A DNA stretch of 64,000 nt, from the IMG/VR virus record IMGVR_UViG_3300026549_000037, positions 96,001 through 160,000 of that record. The stretch is one strand, 5' to 3'. Position numbers and translations under genes: made by a program. A model generated the notes under the pieces. The model saw nothing but the letters and a program-made list of their open reading frames with translations, did not search any database and had not been told where the DNA came from. Below, one piece after another: positions 41,170 through 59,494 of this stretch (the stretch's first letter is position 1; each line of letters starts with the position of its first letter). The stretch comes from a virus. Its lineage: Duplodnaviria > Caudoviricetes.

Positions 41170-41334
41170 AAGATGGAGAAAAAAGTAAAACAGGTAGTTT
41201 ATCTTATGTGATACAATCAAGTTTGTAACAAACTTAAATATTACTTGACAAATTAAACTTTATATGTTATAATTGTAGACAGAGATTGGTGTAGTCTCTG
41301 TCTACTTTTTGTTTTTAAGGGAGACTTTATATAG

Positions 41335-46874: not shown

Positions 46875-47285
46875 ATGCCGAACATATATAAGCAGAGGAA
46901 CAAGCTAAATCAGCTTGCATTGAAGAAGCAGAAGGAGTTTCCTACTCTATGTTGTATTAAGCCTATTAAGGGCTTTATTGAAGTAGGAGAAAAGGCTAAT
47001 ATTTTTAATTTATTTAGGGATAAAGGTTCAGAGGACATTTATAATGCGGGAGAAAAGTCGAAAGAAACTTTGTACCAAGTAATTAAAGAAAATCATAAAG
47101 CAGGAGATGCACAACCTTTTCTCACAGCAAATGAAGTAAAGGAGTATTTTGATATTACTCCCGTCATTGAAAAAGGGCTGAATATTGAAGATGCGCAAAT
47201 TGTATTTCGAGTGGCTGACAATAGTAAGAATAAGAGACCTGTGTTAACCAAGGAAGAATTTGCCAAATCTCTTGACAACGAATAA
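46875..47285 (+). CDS. hypothetical protein
   Basis: SD AAGGAG. Confidence 0.75.
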   Translation: MPNIYKQRNKLNQLALKKQKEFPTLCCIKPIKGFIEVGEKANIFNLFRDKGSEDIYNAGEKSKETLYQVIKENHKAGDAQPFLTANEVKEYFDITPVIEKGLNIEDAQIVFRVADNSKNKRPVLTKEEFAKSLDNE

Positions 47286-47345
47286 ATAATATGTTATAAT
47301 AGGTTCATGCTGAAAAGTATGAGCCTATTTGTATTGTAGTAAGAG

Positions 47346-52063: not shown

Positions 52064-52552
52064 ATTAGTTTTCTCCTTTCATAAGACCACGAAGCAAATT
52101 ATACATCAGAGTATTTGCTTCTTCATCGGTTTGAAGCATAACAGTAGCCTCCTCAAAAGTTTCATCATTGGTGATTTTGAGAGTGGAACGACATTTGTTT
52201 TGAACAATAGTAACCATAAAATTTCCTTTCTCCCCGTATAGCCGATAGGACAGCTTGTTTATTGCGTTGTTAATTAACGATGTGAATAAGCCATAAAAAC
52301 GCAATAAATTCCAAAGTTAAAAGCCAACCAATAATATTGATACAGAATCACCTCCTTTCATTTCTTATTTTCGTTTTCGATGAGATGTTACAAACCCATA
52401 AACAAAGCCCACCAATAAGTTTATGATAATAAAAGCATCTAAACAATTAATACCATAAACATTATTTGGGATATTGCTACAGATTGCATAAACGAAAACT
52501 ATAATAAGAATTGCAATATTCAGATATTACCACCTCCTTTCATATTATAATA

Positions 52553-53284: not shown

Positions 53285-53521
53285 TTGACAAACTCAAGAA
53301 GATGTGTTATATTATCATCAATGGGAGGCAGAGATGTGTCCTCTACCTTCCGTCAACTCATTCGTTAGTTGCGGTGCTTGATGATGAACACCTGAACTAT
53401 GCTGCTAACATAGTCAACGAAAATGATTCGCTACATATTTTCACTTCCTTTCCAAATAAAGTGACTACGAATGAGTAGTCTATAAACAGAGAGACAGTTG
53501 AATGAAACTGTCTCTCTTTTT
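53285..53521 (+). ncRNA. antisense unit A over an amber peptide ORF
   Basis: TTGACA 53285 / TATATT 53308; terminator AGAGAGACAGTT...AACTGTCTCTCT-TTT. Confidence 0.65.
53365..53436 (-). CDS. KHRN peptide A, TAG at codon 2
   Basis: SD GAAAGGAAGTG; M*RIIFVDYVSSIVQVFIIKHRN. Confidence 0.7.
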
Positions 53522-54107
53522 ACTTAAGGAACATCTTACCATTCTCAGTGGTAATAGTATTCTTGTAAATCACATCTTTATAACAGAAGATGTAATTATC
53601 CAGAGTTTCATTACGCTGAAAACAATCAGGTTTAGTCATACGACCGATACCAGACTTATCTCCCTCGTAAACTGTGATGAAATAGAAAGAAGGTTCTCTC
53701 ACCAGATTATTTCCAAGAGAAGCAGAGAAAGAAAAATCACGAATATATGTCTGAATTTCTTTTACTGTTTCTTTATCAGCAATAACATTAAGAACGTTAG
53801 AGCAGATAACAATATAAGGGTCATAATAGAGCCCCGAAGACAAAGCAATATTGTTTTCTTCAACAGGCTTCCAGAACGGGTCATATCCTCTGAAGATAAA
53901 ACCCTTAGTAGCAAGGAACTGCTCAATATGGTCAGTATAGCGACCACAGCCGAAATCAAGGACAATGGGGGTTCGGTCAAATTTGGTAATCTTTGCCCAA
54001 TGCTCACGAAGAGCATCCCAATCTAAACGATTGTAGATAGCAGGAAGCTTCTTGGAGTTGATGGAAGTGTTCTTAGAAGTGATGTCGGACTGAACAGTGC
54101 AATACAT
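53520..54107 (-). CDS. class I SAM-dependent methyltransferase
   Basis: VLDFGCGR, GYDP, SNVLNVI. Confidence 0.85.
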   Translation of the reverse strand: MYCTVQSDITSKNTSINSKKLPAIYNRLDWDALREHWAKITKFDRTPIVLDFGCGRYTDHIEQFLATKGFIFRGYDPFWKPVEENNIALSSGLYYDPYIVICSNVLNVIADKETVKEIQTYIRDFSFSASLGNNLVREPSFYFITVYEGDKSGIGRMTKPDCFQRNETLDNYIFCYKDVIYKNTITTENGKMFLK

Positions 54108-54138
54108 TGTAATACCTCCTTAAATTAAATGATTTTGT

Positions 54139-54456
54139 TCAAGAGCGAATCTGTGCTGCGATTTTGTCAACGACAAGACGATATTTGTTTGTCATTTTAG
54201 GGGACTTATAATTACGTCCTCTACGATAAACATTGAGGATGTCATATGTATCATCATCAACAAAGGGAGAAGTGAACTGGATAAGAACAGAAGCGAAATC
54301 AATCGGTTTTGTAGGAGCATCGGTTCGCCATTCAATGATATACTTTCCACAACTGATAACAGGACGGAAGATTTTAAATTCACGTCCAGACTCATCATGA
54401 AGAGTCTTGAGATAGAAATAATTTCCATAAGTTGTGTTGTATTTAGACTTAGCCAT
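54139..54456 (-). CDS. hypothetical protein
   Basis: SD AAGGAGG. Confidence 0.7.
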   Translation of the reverse strand: MAKSKYNTTYGNYFYLKTLHDESGREFKIFRPVISCGKYIIEWRTDAPTKPIDFASVLIQFTSPFVDDDTYDILNVYRRGRNYKSPKMTNKYRLVVDKIAAQIRS

Positions 54457-54492
54457 TGTTACATCCTCCTTAAAAATATTTTTGAAAAACAC

Positions 54493-54753
54493 TTGACAAA
54501 TAGAAAAAGATATGTTATAATATCTTTATGAAAAGGTTGGAAGTTCAATCCCGCCTAAGCTTATTTAAAGCTTAAAGTAGCCTAAATAACTTATACCAAT
54601 CATTTTAAATTAAATGAAAGATTGATTTAGGAACCATTTTAAATGGATTGAAATCTACATTTTATCACCTCAATTCTATTCCGATGAACATAAGATAGCT
54701 ATACGGGTAGCGAGTAAGAGAGACAGAAGTGTGAGTTCTGTCTCTCATTTTTT
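54493..54753 (+). ncRNA. antisense unit B
   Basis: TTGACA 54493 / TATAAT 54516; terminator GAGAGACAGAA...TTCTGTCTCTC-ATTTTTT. Confidence 0.6.
54610..54660 (-). CDS. small peptide B, TAG at codon 2
   Basis: SD GAGGTG; M*ISIHLKWFLNQSFI. Confidence 0.45.
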
Positions 54754-55022
54754 CAATCAAGGGTTACATAATACCAACCAGTGCAATAATCTTCTTCATT
54801 GTTGCGCTTATCTTCTTCGGGGTCGTAATACCCTGTTACGGGTGTCACTTCTTCGTTTTGAGACCTATAAAGTTGTGTTAAAAGGTCGGAAATGGTTTCA
54901 GCAATTTCTTCAGACTTACAAAGAATTTCATAGCCATTAGACCAAATTTCCCCGTCTGGAAAGTCTCTTAGTCTTTCAAGAAATTCTGAAATCCATTCTT
55001 TTTTCTCTTCTTTATTAAACAT
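54753..55022 (-). CDS. hypothetical protein
   Basis: SD GGAGGT; TGYYDPEED...TGWYYV. Confidence 0.8.
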   Translation of the reverse strand: MFNKEEKKEWISEFLERLRDFPDGEIWSNGYEILCKSEEIAETISDLLTQLYRSQNEEVTPVTGYYDPEEDKRNNEEDYCTGWYYVTLD

Positions 55023-55043
55023 AGTAACCTCCCTTAAACAAAC

Positions 55044-55325
55044 CTAAACATCAATGATAACAGATTCCTCAATAATGAGGAAATTCCCAGCAAGATGCAT
55101 ATTATAATGGGTATAAGTTGCGCCAGCAATGGATTCAACGGGAATTGGGTCGCTGACGTAACCCAAATTACTCAGATACTCTTGCTTTGACTTGTAATCT
55201 TCAAGGGCAGCATCAGCTTCAAACCGCTCATCTTTATTGTCAAAAGTGTAGATGTGAAGCTGTGCCTTTTCTATATTGTCGTTATCAGGAATCCATGCAT
55301 AACCAGTGGACATATACTTTCTCAT
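55044..55325 (-). CDS. hypothetical protein
   Basis: SD AAGGAGG. Confidence 0.75.
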   Translation of the reverse strand: MRKYMSTGYAWIPDNDNIEKAQLHIYTFDNKDERFEADAALEDYKSKQEYLSNLGYVSDPIPVESIAGATYTHYNMHLAGNFLIIEESVIIDV

Positions 55326-55346
55326 TTTTATTCCTCCTTAAGATTC

Positions 55347-55943
55347 TTAAAATAAGGTTTTGACCTCAAGTTTATTACAGTGACATTTACCACAGCGATA
55401 ACGCTCAGGATGTTCAATAAGCTTGCACATTCTTGTCCTTGTAGCAACTATCCTGTTACAATTAGGACAATAAACCTGATATTTTGCCCCTCCAAGTTGA
55501 GCCGCAGTTTCCTGAGCATACCATGCAGGAGCATCTTCAGGATTTACACACCGAGTTACTTTAAACTCTGTGAAATTGGAAACATAATTAGCTTTGGATT
55601 TCCATTCGCCAGTATGTTTCATGCCGTTTTTGGTAGCATGAAGAACCTCATGGAGAATTACTTCATGAACACCTCTGGGAAGGGCTGCTTCGAAATACCG
55701 ATGAGAGAACGTGAGAACATATTTGTAATCACTGTCTTTGTAACAAAGACCCAGAGATTTAGGTCTGGGCTTTTCATTCCAACCAACGCGGAACTGGACA
55801 TTCTGCATTTTCTTTTCATGCCCCCACATATAATCCAGCCAAACACAGATTTCATTCACCTCCTTTCTAATATCATCGAGAGTATAGTTTGCTGTGTCAG
55901 TGCGGGAAAAAGACTTAGGAATCAGAGAATAGATGTCAGCCAT
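55347..55943 (-). CDS. SprT-like Zn metalloprotease
   Basis: LGLC, HEVLH, H...WK, C-terminal CPNC...CGKC. Confidence 0.85.
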   Translation of the reverse strand: MADIYSLIPKSFSRTDTANYTLDDIRKEVNEICVWLDYMWGHEKKMQNVQFRVGWNEKPRPKSLGLCYKDSDYKYVLTFSHRYFEAALPRGVHEVILHEVLHATKNGMKHTGEWKSKANYVSNFTEFKVTRCVNPEDAPAWYAQETAAQLGGAKYQVYCPNCNRIVATRTRMCKLIEHPERYRCGKCHCNKLEVKTLF

Positions 55944-55978
55944 AATGTCAAACCTCCTTGAATTTAAATTGTTATGAT

Positions 55979-56530
55979 TTAATTGTGGTCACGAACATCT
56001 GCGAAATGGTCAATGATAGCGTTTGTGTCTTTTTGGATTCTGTTGGTAGTCTTTTCAATTTCTTTGAGCAGGTTGAAACGAAGATTGGTGTAGATATTGT
56101 ATTCTTCCCAACGAGTGATAAAACCAGCAGGAGAAATACCCAAAGCTCCAAAACAAGAAGTGGAAATAAATGGAACATTTAAACTATAATTTTCATTGAA
56201 ATAAGGCCCCTGAACATACATACGACAGTCTTTATTAATGGAAACATTAACTTGGCATCCCGTGTCATCCTCAATATAAGTAGCGCGAATCACAGAGATT
56301 TTAGCTTCTTTCATAGCTTCAACCAAAGGCTTAAGCTGTTCACAAATTGCGTTCCACTTAGCCTCACCAATTGCGTTGATTTTGGGAGTGTAGAAGCTAT
56401 CAGTGGTTTCGTAGTTGTTTTTGGTTTCACTAAGTTTCTTGAGAGCCATAGCGAGTTCCAAATCTTCCTGCATATCATACTCGACAGTAACCTTGATGTT
56501 GTTGATGGTGTTTGTGTTCTTGATTTCCAT
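55979..56530 (-). CDS. hypothetical protein
   Basis: SD AAGGAG. Confidence 0.8.
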   Translation of the reverse strand: MEIKNTNTINNIKVTVEYDMQEDLELAMALKKLSETKNNYETTDSFYTPKINAIGEAKWNAICEQLKPLVEAMKEAKISVIRATYIEDDTGCQVNVSINKDCRMYVQGPYFNENYSLNVPFISTSCFGALGISPAGFITRWEEYNIYTNLRFNLLKEIEKTTNRIQKDTNAIIDHFADVRDHN

Positions 56531-56600
56531 AGTTGTTCTCCTTTAAATAAATTTATTTTGTGTTAAGATAGTAGAAAAGGGGTAGTTATCTACCCCTTAT

Positions 56601-57017
56601 TTACTGGACTTCAATGGTATAGAAATCTTCGTCACAGTGGAAACATTGATAAGTGTAATCTTCAACAGTAGAAGGATAAAGATTCCGTCCACACTTGGGG
56701 CATTTCTTTACGGGGTCACATTCCTCACCTCCATTCTCAAGGAACTCCTTTTCATCATCGGTGATGATTTCATTTTCATTAAGAGCAAAGAGAAGTCCGT
56801 CATAAGTTTCACAGATTTCCTTCTGAAACTCAGGAACAGCCCCAATCTTACGCTTAATCATTTTCACCTCACTTCCATCCACAACAACGCAAGGAGTTTC
56901 GTCTCCAAAAACATTGTGCTCAAGGAGACAATAAACCTTATCATTGATGCGTTTAAAATCAATGATGCTCCACAGACCAGAATGACCAACAGTTTTGTAA
57001 GTATTGTCCTTAACCAT
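56601..57017 (-). CDS. hypothetical protein with C-terminal Zn ribbon
   Basis: SD AAGGAGG; CPKCG...CFHCDEDFY. Confidence 0.75.
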   Translation of the reverse strand: MVKDNTYKTVGHSGLWSIIDFKRINDKVYCLLEHNVFGDETPCVVVDGSEVKMIKRKIGAVPEFQKEICETYDGLLFALNENEIITDDEKEFLENGGEECDPVKKCPKCGRNLYPSTVEDYTYQCFHCDEDFYTIEVQ

Positions 57018-57064
57018 TTTTAAATCCTCCTTAAATTTGTTATTGTTTATGGTTAATGGTTTGG

Positions 57065-57280
57065 TTAAACCCGAGAATAGGTATCCCAATTCACATTGTA
57101 AAGATAAGAATCCATCATAATGAGAAAGAGTTTACGCTGATTAGATTCTCCCCAAACTCGCCGCATACCAGTGATATTGGGATGAGGCCCTGCATTGGGA
57201 AAAGATTCGATATGAGACTTAAGAAAAGGGGAAATGCTGGACTGCTTGGCATACTTGACGGGATAGACTTTGTTTTTCAT
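57065..57280 (-). CDS. hypothetical protein
   Basis: SD AAGGAGG. Confidence 0.7.
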   Translation of the reverse strand: MKNKVYPVKYAKQSSISPFLKSHIESFPNAGPHPNITGMRRVWGESNQRKLFLIMMDSYLYNVNWDTYSRV

Positions 57281-57317
57281 TTTGTGAAACCTCCTTAAAA
57301 ATCTTTCTTAGAATTCT

Positions 57318-57926
57318 TTAAATTAACAGGATAAATAGGTCTTCAAAGTAATAGCCTTCCCGAGAAATCATTTCACAAGCTTTAAGCTCATTTTCTGAAA
57401 GGCAGTCTTTATTGAAGAGTGAATTTGCAGTAGCAAGACCTGCGATATAACAAAGAGCAAGTTTAGAGAAAAATTCAAATTCATAAACTTTGAAGGTAAC
57501 TCTTCCTTCTTCAACAAGCTGATTGAAAGTGTCAGCCCCCATACAAACAGCGGTAGGCATATTAGGACAACTATAATCAGGAACACAAATGTCCTTCCAA
57601 GAATTGATAGGCTCATCGAAGCTGTCTGTATAAAAAGTAACCTCAAGAACACAGGTTGTATCAAAAGGATGAGGTAAACAAGCATTCTGAATCTGAGCTG
57701 CTTCATTACAACGTTCAATACAATACTGAATCGCTGTTTCATTATCATCATCATAAATACATTCAGATTCTTTCATGAGAGAGGCATCATAAAAGAAAAT
57801 AGAATCTCCATCGGCACACGTCCAAGGGTGAACAATCTTATTGTTTCCATGCTCAAGACCATATTCACCATGTGTGATTGGCTCGATAGCAGACTTGATG
57901 CAACCATGATAAAGAGTGTAAGACAT
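57318..57926 (-). CDS. hypothetical protein (LYHG N-terminus)
   Basis: SD AGGAGG before MSYTLYHG. Confidence 0.75.
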   Translation of the reverse strand: MSYTLYHGCIKSAIEPITHGEYGLEHGNNKIVHPWTCADGDSIFFYDASLMKESECIYDDDNETAIQYCIERCNEAAQIQNACLPHPFDTTCVLEVTFYTDSFDEPINSWKDICVPDYSCPNMPTAVCMGADTFNQLVEEGRVTFKVYEFEFFSKLALCYIAGLATANSLFNKDCLSENELKACEMISREGYYFEDLFILLI

Positions 57927-57970
57927 AATACTAACCTCCTGAATTTTTTTAAAATTTTGTGAAATAATGC

Positions 57971-58220
57971 TTGACAAACAGATTGGAATATGTTATACTG
58001 TCCACAGTAAGAGAAGTTGACCCACATCTTCCCTTACTGTGCGTAATTAAAGTGGTGTATTAATTACGGTGCTTCATAATGAAGACACAAACAATATTGT
58101 CGGTGTAATCGACGTAGATGATTTTCTACATACAATCGTCTCCTTTCAAATAAGATGATATGTAAACAGAGTTGTGGGACTCTGGAAACATTAGAGAGTG
58201 GTTTTACTGCTCTCTTTTGT
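57971..58220 (+). ncRNA. antisense unit C
   Basis: TTGACA 57971 / TATACT 57994; hairpin AGAGAGTGG...CTGCTCTCT-TTT. Confidence 0.6.
58060..58131 (-). CDS. KHRN peptide C, TAG at codon 2
   Basis: SD GAAAGGAG; M*KIIYVDYTDNIVCVFIMKHRN. Confidence 0.7.
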
Positions 58221-58221
58221 T

Positions 58222-58701
58222 TTAGTCACGAGGGTCAAAAGCAACGTCAATCCAAAGACTGTTTCCTGCCTCGGAGTCATAATAAAGTTCAGCATTTTCA
58301 ACAAATAGCTCATCGGAAAGGTCATTCCAATCCAAAGAGCCGACTGCAACAGAGAGACAGGTATGTCCACCTCCAATTATCCATTTACCCTTAGATGTAT
58401 TGTAGATTGCAATTTTGGTATCTTTGGAGAGGATTCGAATAAAATCCTTAATGGAAACATAGTGGTCAGGGTTTACAGTCTTATTTTCCTCCCCGTTTAA
58501 ATAATTGCAAGCCGCCTTGAAATCTTCAAGGAAATAGTGACCCTGAGCCCAATAATGACGCTGATAATCAATTCCCCATGCCACAGTATAACGGGGATGA
58601 CCATCATCAGTCCAATTGCACAGGAGAGTGCGGTCAAGTTCTTTGTTCTCCGCAACGATTTCGTAAGTGATGCCATTGTCATTCTTAAACTCTCTAACCA
58701 T
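58222..58701 (-). CDS. hypothetical protein
   Basis: SD GGAGGT; YTVAWG...WAQGHYF. Confidence 0.75.
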   Translation of the reverse strand: MVREFKNDNGITYEIVAENKELDRTLLCNWTDDGHPRYTVAWGIDYQRHYWAQGHYFLEDFKAACNYLNGEENKTVNPDHYVSIKDFIRILSKDTKIAIYNTSKGKWIIGGGHTCLSVAVGSLDWNDLSDELFVENAELYYDSEAGNSLWIDVAFDPRD

Positions 58702-58745
58702 TTTAAATACCTCCAAATATTTTTTAATAAATTTCGAAAAAAGAC

Positions 58746-59010
58746 TTGACAAATGTGTAAAGATATGCTATAATTAAGTCACAATCTAAAAGAGACCTGC
58801 AACCTCAGATAGATTGTGACTTGTATAAGAAATCAACTCGCATTAATTTCTATGTTTAACTATTAATACCTAACAGGTATTATAAGTATAATCAATGTGT
58901 ATGATTTTACTCATGTGAAATCACCTCTTTTCTCCCTCTATAGGGAAAGTTAAGCTTTGCAGGAGCTTAATAAAAAGGACGAGTAGCTGCTAACTACCCG
59001 TCCTTTTATT
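58746..59010 (+). ncRNA. antisense unit D
   Basis: TTGACA 58746 / TATAAT 58769; bidirectional terminator AAAAGGACG.GTAG...CTAC.CGTCCTTTT. Confidence 0.6.
58843..58914 (-). CDS. KHRN peptide D, TAG at codon 15
   Basis: SD AAGAGGTG; MSKIIHIDYTYNTC*VLIVKHRN. Confidence 0.7.
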
Positions 59011-59011
59011 T

Positions 59012-59494
59012 TTATCTGTTCTGCTTGCCAACAAAAGCAAGATTTTCTAACTTGATAGTCAGAACATCAGGCTTTTCATCAAGCTTGTTGAAATATGATG
59101 CCTGAATAAGACCAGTTGCCTGAAGGTCAGCTTTCTTGATTTCCTTACCGTCAAGGAAATACTTAACCTTAGACTTATTGGGAGTGCTGTGAGCAACAAC
59201 ATAGATGTTATGCTCACCAGCCTTGTTGGTGTGCTCAATAAAACGGTCAGAACCAGAGAGATAAGTTCCCCAAGTCCTCTGCTGAGGAACATAGCCCTGT
59301 TCCATCTTTGCCTTGATGGAAGCCTTGTTTGTACGATTGATGCCGAAGCGGACAGTTGCAAGGGTCTTCTTGTAGGCAACGTGACCAGCCCTCTTTGCTG
59401 CGGCAGTTAACGGAAGGTCAGTAGTCCATCCGATATTGGTGAAAGTCCCCTTGTGGATAGCGTTGATGATGGTCATAGCTTCGTTCTTGTTCAT
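59012..59494 (-). CDS. hypothetical protein
   Basis: SD AAGGAG. Confidence 0.8.
   Translation of the reverse strand: MNKNEAMTIINAIHKGTFTNIGWTTDLPLTAAAKRAGHVAYKKTLATVRFGINRTNKASIKAKMEQGYVPQQRTWGTYLSGSDRFIEHTNKAGEHNIYVVAHSTPNKSKVKYFLDGKEIKKADLQATGLIQASYFNKLDEKPDVLTIKLENLAFVGKQNR

Follow-up and report, generated by a model that had tools for sequence, protein, structure and literature searches.

A conserved phage family of probable amber-gated micro-protein genes beneath predicted antisense RNAs

The window analysed here is a 64,000-nt stretch of DNA from a rumen phage (IMG/VR record IMGVR_UViG_3300026549_000037; bases 96001–160000 of a 169.6-kb phage contig, 35% G+C). Between the genes of a − strand block it carries short cassettes, each with a tiny open reading frame (ORF) on the − strand and a + strand promoter and terminator on either side. 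Judged by sequence comparison, these cassettes form a genuine family of amber-gated micro-protein genes, which is conserved, occurs in multiple copies and lies beneath antisense RNAs. We consider it likely that they are doubly locked, by the antisense RNA and by an in-frame TAG. The runs containing the phage region were chiefly bovine gut metagenomes. A megablast search of the cassette region against deposited phage genomes gave no match.

The ORFs of cassettes A, C and D were 23-codon homologs of one type (KHRN), and each had a strong Shine–Dalgarno (SD) sequence, an ATG start and one in-frame TAG, as originally predicted (Table 1). A five-peptide profile matched 25 copies across this genome and those of three related phages from IMG/VR (165–219 kb). 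These fall into the KHRN and EL subtypes, which are bridged by an intermediate form. All 25 copies had an SD, and the start codon was ATG in 24 and GTG in one. One TAG was present in 23 copies and two in one copy; the last had TAA at codon 2.

The pooled ratio of nonsynonymous to synonymous changes per site (pN/pS) in the ORF frame was 0.34 for the KHRN type and 0.49 for the EL type, with synonymous sites nearly saturated between paralogues. Four of the control frames gave 0.9–1.4; the fifth, at 0.6, was the antisense frame with shared third codon positions. The ortholog groups, in which divergence is low, had 50 synonymous variants and 63 nonsynonymous ones. This corresponds to a per-site ratio of 0.32, compared with 1.13 and 1.04 in the shifted frames. 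The proposed coding selection downstream of the TAG was therefore borne out. By these measures, the micro-ORFs are reading frames under frame-specific purifying selection, through and past the TAG, and are probably translated.

The peptides (ORF size 23–26 codons) were rich in beta-branched and aromatic residues, and the C-terminus was mostly basic. Stretches without charged or strongly polar residues reached at most 4–7 aa in the KHRN type and 12–14 aa in the EL type. Because these stretches are short in the KHRN type, a membrane toxin is not indicated. P0001–P0005 had no match in Pfam or NCBIfam at E up to 10. The cassettes had no match in Rfam at the gathering score, and E up to 5 gave just weak matches at chance level. 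This conserved class of phage micro-proteins escapes standard gene callers. A 58-aa ORF on the + strand of cassette A (53302–53478), which is a codon-aligned antisense frame, was considered and rejected. Its start falls within the promoter, ahead of the point where transcription is expected to begin; D has an early TAA in the same frame; and the pN/pS of the frame was ~1.

The TAG was retained throughout the family. Pattern searches blind to TAG were run for the KHRN type in metagenome and genome collections and for the EL type, from codon 8 on, in the viral collection; matches were filtered by start codon and SD before counting. This left 60 distinct ORFs, which encode 44 peptides; 53 of the ORFs had a single TAG, seven had two, and none was free of TAG. 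Retention among homologs, which the original prediction had left to be checked, was complete (60/60). The TAG was mostly at codon 2 (39), followed by codons 15 (15), 6 (11) and 10 (2). The 60 micro-ORFs contained 67 TAG and 6 CAA/CAG codons, compared with 50 TAG and 317 CAA/CAG codons in late genes. The TAG share of TAG, CAA and CAG was thus 92% in the micro-ORFs (67/73) and 14% in the late genes. At the late-gene rate, at least one TAG in 22 codons would be expected with a probability of 0.17. In one homolog (L154), codon 2 is TAG and codon 6 is CAA; in another (L156), codon 2 is CAG and codon 6 is TAG. From this comparison, the stop codon was moved rather than lost, in exchange with Gln codons. 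The counts indicate that the TAG of the micro-ORFs is held by selection and not by drift. As it is kept and shifts its position instead of disappearing, the in-frame stop codon itself appears to be selected as a control element. Outside the phage clade, the patterns matched marine, archaeal and other contigs from the viral, metagenome and genome collections; these matches had no ATG, SD or promoter and were discarded as due to chance.

Within the first 60 kb of the contig, many ORFs became longer when TAG was read as a sense codon. In-frame TAGs numbered 13 in an ORF of 1739 codons and 12 in one of 2190 codons. In-frame TAGs reached 13 per late ORF, whereas the − strand gene block harbouring the cassettes had none, in agreement with the original prediction for the long neighbouring genes. 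In an alignment of a late protein with 25 homologs, one TAG column corresponded to an invariant Gln (25/25) and another to Gln in 14 of 25. Together with the TAG/CAG exchange in the micro-ORFs, this agrees with the predicted meaning of TAG. A tRNA(CUA) was found in this genome, as predicted, and in the three relatives. Code-15 gut phages read TAG as Gln and encode their own suppressor tRNA (bioRxiv 10.1101/2021.08.26.457843; PMC9523058). Given the TAG-rich late genes, the TAG columns at Gln and the encoded tRNA(CUA), we assign this phage to the code-15 type; on the alignment evidence, TAG is Gln here.

The tRNA(CUA) lies far from the cassettes and would be required by the proposed gate. It contains a 222-nt group-I-like intron after position 34, whose presence or absence differs among close relatives. 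The Rfam group I intron model matched at the intron with a score under the gathering threshold. In one relative (G001; L115:1467-1556), an identical 90-nt tRNA(CUA) has both exons contiguous and lacks the intron, which fixes the borders of the intron. The 90-nt tRNA has a long extra arm. The other two relatives (G002 and G003) encode a 75-nt tRNA(CUA) with an identical anticodon arm. The claimed link of the cassettes to an intron-dependent tRNA was thus particular to this genome and was not upheld.

The layout proposed for four cassettes applied to A, C and D, each with a promoter, an RNA, a terminator and an SD-led ORF, but not to B, which is a recombinant (see below). All four + strand promoters consisted of TTGACA, a 17-nt spacer and a TG-extended −10 element and scored 11–12 of 12. 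The terminators of A, B and C came from the terminator scan, and that of D was taken from sequence reading. The D terminator is probably bidirectional, because an A run and a T run flank its stem; only D looks so. Every cassette unit lay within one intergenic gap, and its terminator adjoined the stop codon of the upstream − strand gene. Genome-wide, promoters of the cassette type were found 30 times on the + strand and once on the − strand; inside the − strand block they hence oppose the direction of the genes. The predicted antisense RNA, ~200–230 nt long, is composed of a hairpin, the antisense of ORF and SD, a second hairpin and the terminator, so that a near-consensus, host-type promoter and an intrinsic terminator would enclose SD and ORF on the opposite strand.

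In the four related genomes, an antisense promoter was found opposite 24 of the 25 copies. Of the 60 distinct ORFs, just one had no promoter within 600 nt. The copies without an antisense promoter were second ORFs of tandem pairs. Two EL-type micro-ORFs lie in tandem, ~150 nt apart, at G001:C1:130624-130921 and at L162:4876-5158. The second ORF, in which the TAG is codon 6, lacks its own antisense promoter. A single antisense RNA may serve both ORFs.

Table 1. Cassette features and suppressor tRNA, with positions in the window.
Feature	Positions	Strand	Details
Cassette A antisense promoter	53285..53313	+	−35, 17-nt spacer, TG-extended −10; promoter scan, 11/12
Predicted antisense RNA A (~200 nt)	53320..53522	+	5' hairpin 53323-53351, 3' hairpin 53463-53480, terminator 53488-53522; transcription start deduced from −10 position
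Micro-ORF A (P0001)	53365..53436	−	23 codons, TAG codon 2, SD 53442-53453
Cassette B promoter	54493..54521	+	promoter scan, 12/12, TG
Separate RNA module of B	54528..54654	+	ends in hairpin and ATTGAAAT (CRISPR-repeat-like)
Remnant of KHRN-type cassette	54655..54753	.	ATG-TAG (54655-54660, − strand), SD, 3' hairpin, + strand terminator 54718-54753
Cassette C antisense promoter	57971..57999	+	promoter scan, 11/12, TG
Predicted antisense RNA C	58006..58225	+	5' hairpin 58004-58042 (loop CCCACA), 3' hairpin 58167-58184 (loop UGUGGG), terminator 58193-58225
Micro-ORF C (P0002)	58060..58131	−	23 codons, TAG codon 2
Cassette D antisense promoter	58746..58774	+	promoter scan, 12/12, TG
Predicted antisense RNA D	58781..59013	+	5' hairpin 58778-58820 (loop CCUGCAA), 3' hairpin 58952-58968 (loop UUGCAGG), terminator 58977-59013
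Micro-ORF D (P0003)	58843..58914	−	23 codons, TAG codon 15
Cassettes E and F (P0004, P0005)	4-9 kb past window end		26 codons, TAG codon 2 or 6
tRNA(CUA), amber suppressor	6193..6504	+	ARAGORN, introns allowed; 222-nt intron inside

The sense RNA of the micro-ORFs appeared to be strongly structured. In every cassette type, the real stop codon was located within a hairpin, and a long hairpin followed the ORF. In A, the final codons and the stop were within the hairpin 53350–53374; in C, the R-N-stop codons formed the 5' arm of a 9-bp hairpin. Between C and D, a synonymous switch of Arg codon family was matched by compensating changes in the opposite hairpin arm. The 5' hairpin contained 131 G-U pairs in the peptide-sense orientation and 30 in the antisense orientation (65 distinct sequences), and for 73 of the 80 distinct cassettes the sense version was the more stable one. 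The consensus fold of the sense RNA was more stable in five of six groups. Across the hairpins, A-C mismatches were tolerated in the + strand RNA, while G-U pairs were kept in the sense RNA.

Moreover, the two hairpins around the ORF matched each other. The loop upstream of the SD is complementary to that of the long hairpin after the ORF, and the partners co-varied among the cassette types, with at least seven different loop pairs. Loop-loop complementarity between the apical loop of the first hairpin and the region of the second had a mean of 6.4 nt within the same cassette and 4.7 nt with other cassettes. Of the own pairs, 46 of 80 had a match of at least 7 nt; of the cross pairs, 58 of 720 did. 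Cassette A had a 10-bp long-range helix in place of the loop-loop pairing. According to these predicted folds, a pair of interacting elements clasps the ORF in the sense RNA, and by symmetry the same holds for the antisense RNA.

A host-type promoter in sense orientation was not found in the 170 nt upstream of the ORFs, although a phage-specific promoter is possible: the best score was 8.56, compared with 8.31 in shuffled sequences and 12.8 for the antisense promoters. A k-mer search for a phage-specific promoter motif gave nothing besides the host-type promoter. No phage sigma factor that might account for − strand transcription was found in the contig, which is 78% complete; a search for a T7-type RNA polymerase in it also gave no match, but the control for the polymerase family was silent as well, which makes this second result uninformative. 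As the ORFs lack a host-type promoter of their own, the sense RNA would most simply be the − strand operon transcript. The cassette region was present in contigs of rumen metatranscriptome runs, which shows presence only.

Some features of these contigs are recorded here and were not counted as evidence. One contig (58015–58983) had the first hairpin of C and the terminator stem of D as its exact limits, with sequencing-adapter letters at both ends. Its depth was ~8x that of the next contig; the strand was not readable. In one sample, contigs of both runs broke at the D terminator.

The double lock postulated originally, i.e. antisense RNA plus amber codon, was upheld by the retained TAG, the tRNA(CUA) and the antisense unit, but its tie to tRNA splicing was not. 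It is well supported by the comparison of genomes, and a reasonable conclusion from selected ORFs, a kept TAG that stands for Gln, an encoded tRNA(CUA) and an antisense unit over SD and ORF. The micro-ORFs would be part of a polycistronic mRNA of the − strand. In the early phase of infection, the polymerase of the host would produce plentiful antisense RNA, which would pair with SD and ORF and either block translation or mark the duplex for cleavage. As long as UAG means stop, initiating ribosomes would be released after Met (TAG at codon 2) or after a short stub. The full peptide would be made only when suppression is active and the antisense RNA no longer dominates. As to the role of the peptide, a timed and possibly host-damaging late function is our leading guess, offered with low confidence. 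A tentative proposal of comparable weight is that the micro-ORFs are a dedicated read-out of the code switch. The retained UAG would make peptide synthesis or ribosome passage report the onset of suppression and trigger a late step, with the antisense RNA setting the threshold. If so, the late step could be, e.g., host shut-off, lysis timing or the remodelling of accessory-gene mRNAs, and the phage would have several copies per genome of a regulatory device resting on codon meaning.

Several points weigh against doubly locked micro-protein genes. The central ten codons alone gave a weaker selection signal (ratio 0.65). The conserved residues partly overlap the hairpins within the ORF and at its end, and the constraints on RNA and protein are therefore partly entangled. 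The copies share ancestry, so that the counts overstate the number of independent events. The KHRN peptides, with just 4–7 consecutive residues that are neither charged nor strongly polar, fall short of a classical transmembrane helix. Since no host-type sense promoter was present, we infer the source of the sense RNA. Both transcripts and their translation are predictions, and the RNA runs are available as contigs, in which strand, ends and levels are unreadable. Finally, one copy of micro-ORF A in a relative (G003:C1:169948-170016, L015) reads ATG-TAA, which would abolish the peptide there. Elsewhere, this ORF differs by a single synonymous change. The allele is probably dead, through a recent inactivation; alternatively, starting translation and ending it at once may itself serve a purpose.

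Three other explanations were weighed. The micro-ORFs could act as a sensor of the code switch, similar to a leader peptide, in which the act of translation matters and not its product. Before suppression, ribosomes would halt at the UAG and leave the stop hairpin and the loop-loop clasp of the sense RNA in place. After the switch, they would reach the real stop and open both, which would affect the flanking − strand genes in their processing, stability or translation, with the antisense RNA as a tuner. The position of the ORFs between operon genes without a promoter of their own, the stop codon that is always in a hairpin and followed by a long hairpin, the structure selected in the sense RNA, the co-variation of the two clasping hairpins and the TAG mostly at codon 2 are all consistent with this. 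However, purifying selection on the amino acids along the whole ORF, in both subtypes with their different C-termini, weighs against a sensor. The SD of the next gene is ~110–130 nt away, beyond the antisense promoter, no alternative terminator or antiterminator fold was seen, and the long hairpin has no U-tract in the sense orientation. We regard the sensor as unlikely.

Alternatively, the + strand small RNAs may be the functional products, as operon insulators, antisense regulators or trans-acting RNAs, and the micro-ORFs mere start-stop elements or landing sites for ribosomes, with peptides that serve no purpose. The very strong and conserved promoters and terminators fit this idea, as do the ATG-TAA variant in one relative and a + strand RNA unit of the same design that occurs without an ORF (the B module as found in relatives). 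It conflicts with the frame-specific purifying selection downstream of the TAG. A TAG that shifts among codons 2, 6, 10 and 15, with at least one always kept, would be meaningless for a start-stop element or an RNA motif. The hairpins' tolerance of A-C mismatches in the + strand RNA, with G-U pairs kept in the sense RNA, also counts against it. This explanation is improbable, somewhat more so than the sensor. Chance ORFs in repeated intergenic DNA are least credible and can practically be dismissed. The ORFs are indeed very short and overlooked by automatic gene callers, but 25 copies in four genomes have an SD, a start codon and a conserved frame, the selection statistics single out the ORF frame, which already contradicts chance, and spurious pattern matches elsewhere come without ATG, SD or promoter. 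Doubly locked micro-protein genes therefore remain the reading that we favour.

Filing the cassettes under type I toxin-antitoxin loci, to which they had been likened, was not earned: no sense promoter was found, the KHRN type has no stretch of transmembrane length and no known family matched. In size, the ORFs are within the range of type I toxins (under about 60 codons), which are hydrophobic and usually span the membrane, and the predicted cis-antisense RNA with its own promoter and terminator agrees with this class. The best reading of the cassettes is that they are built like such loci, yet stand outside any known family. The ibs/Sib loci of E. coli are reportedly type I toxin-antitoxin loci with a very short ORF wholly inside the gene of a cis-antisense small RNA. 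The cassettes resemble them in having several diverged copies per genome and an antisense RNA over the ribosome-binding site. They differ in that all ORFs carry a UAG that needs the phage suppressor tRNA, that no sense promoter was found, that the peptides are not uniformly hydrophobic and that the loci lie between operon genes of a lytic-type phage; nor is there any sequence or profile similarity to ibs/Sib. The toxin mRNAs of hok/sok and aapA1/IsoA1 have long-range 5'–3' pairing. Here, too, the sense RNA appears highly structured, with a co-varying pairing of an element upstream of the SD with one downstream of the ORF. However, the contact in the cassettes is a 6–8-nt loop-loop match of two hairpins rather than a terminal fold-back helix, and there is no overlapping coupling ORF.

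PeSL cassettes of T4-type phages are said to be promoter/stem-loop modules between accessory genes, the promoters of which drive the neighbours in sense. Our cassettes share the repeated promoter and hairpin modules between accessory genes and the recombination joints, cassette B being such a recombinant. In contrast to PeSL, their promoters oppose the gene block and would give short terminated RNAs.

The closest parallel to the amber lock is found in code-15 gut phages, in which in-frame TAG is confined to late-made genes (bioRxiv 10.1101/2021.08.26.457843; PMC9523058). An early-gene homing endonuclease was likewise preferentially recoded, with TGA in that clade (bioRxiv 10.1101/2021.08.26.457843). 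Shared with this gate are the reading of TAG as Gln, the phage's own suppressor tRNA and the limitation of TAG to genes that would be made late. Unlike there, the gating here concerns micro-ORFs, each under an antisense RNA, in a block that is otherwise free of TAG. The terms "antisense" and "small ORF" were both absent from the text of the code-15 phage paper, and a literature search did not find the combination of amber-gated micro-ORFs with antisense control. Recoded phages are thought to time late genes by a changed meaning of stop codons; here, a whole family of tiny genes seemingly exists in gated form only. Antisense RNA, a clasped fold of the sense RNA and the TAG would make a compact system of three separable parts and would show codon reassignment used for regulation.

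Cassette B had been described as a fourth ATG-TAG peptide cassette. The sequence facts were correct, but the peptide gene was not confirmed, as B is a chimera with its junction located exactly before the complement of ATG-TAG. The part at 54478–54654, with the promoter and a distinct RNA, recurs in relatives with its own terminator and without an SD or ATG. The part at 54655–54755 was 96–98% identical to the end of the KHRN-type cassette that occupies this site in two relatives. Since B joins an RNA module to the end of a KHRN cassette, "ORF B" (54610–54660) is a by-product of recombination and not a gene.

Going by sequence alone, the ATTGAAAT of the B module is similar to the 3' end of CRISPR repeats of types I-B and I-C. 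Modules of the B type were also found in relatives at L006:10108-10290 and L001:5442-5627, and a longer variant in one relative has two ~32-nt repeats of the GTCGCA...ATTGAAAT kind. The B module may be a phage-encoded repeat-like RNA, e.g. an RNA anti-CRISPR or a mini-array.

A 28-kb contig with four cassettes (L148, CAVKBM010000181.1) was binned into a Bacteroidaceae metagenome-assembled genome. This binning is doubtful, as the TTGACA/TATAAT promoters and long SDs look Gram-positive. At 52222–52256 of the window, a stretch of ~33 nt over the SD and start of a − strand gene was covered very deeply in two RNA/DNA runs and continued there in many divergent ways. Identical letters also precede 62855 in one run. 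The stretch is a short element common to many related genomes and possibly a recombination joint. Two further consensus + strand promoters were located at 41245–41320 and 47272–47335, each immediately followed by a hairpin. At the former, a T run follows the hairpin and resembles a terminator or attenuator ahead of the next gene.

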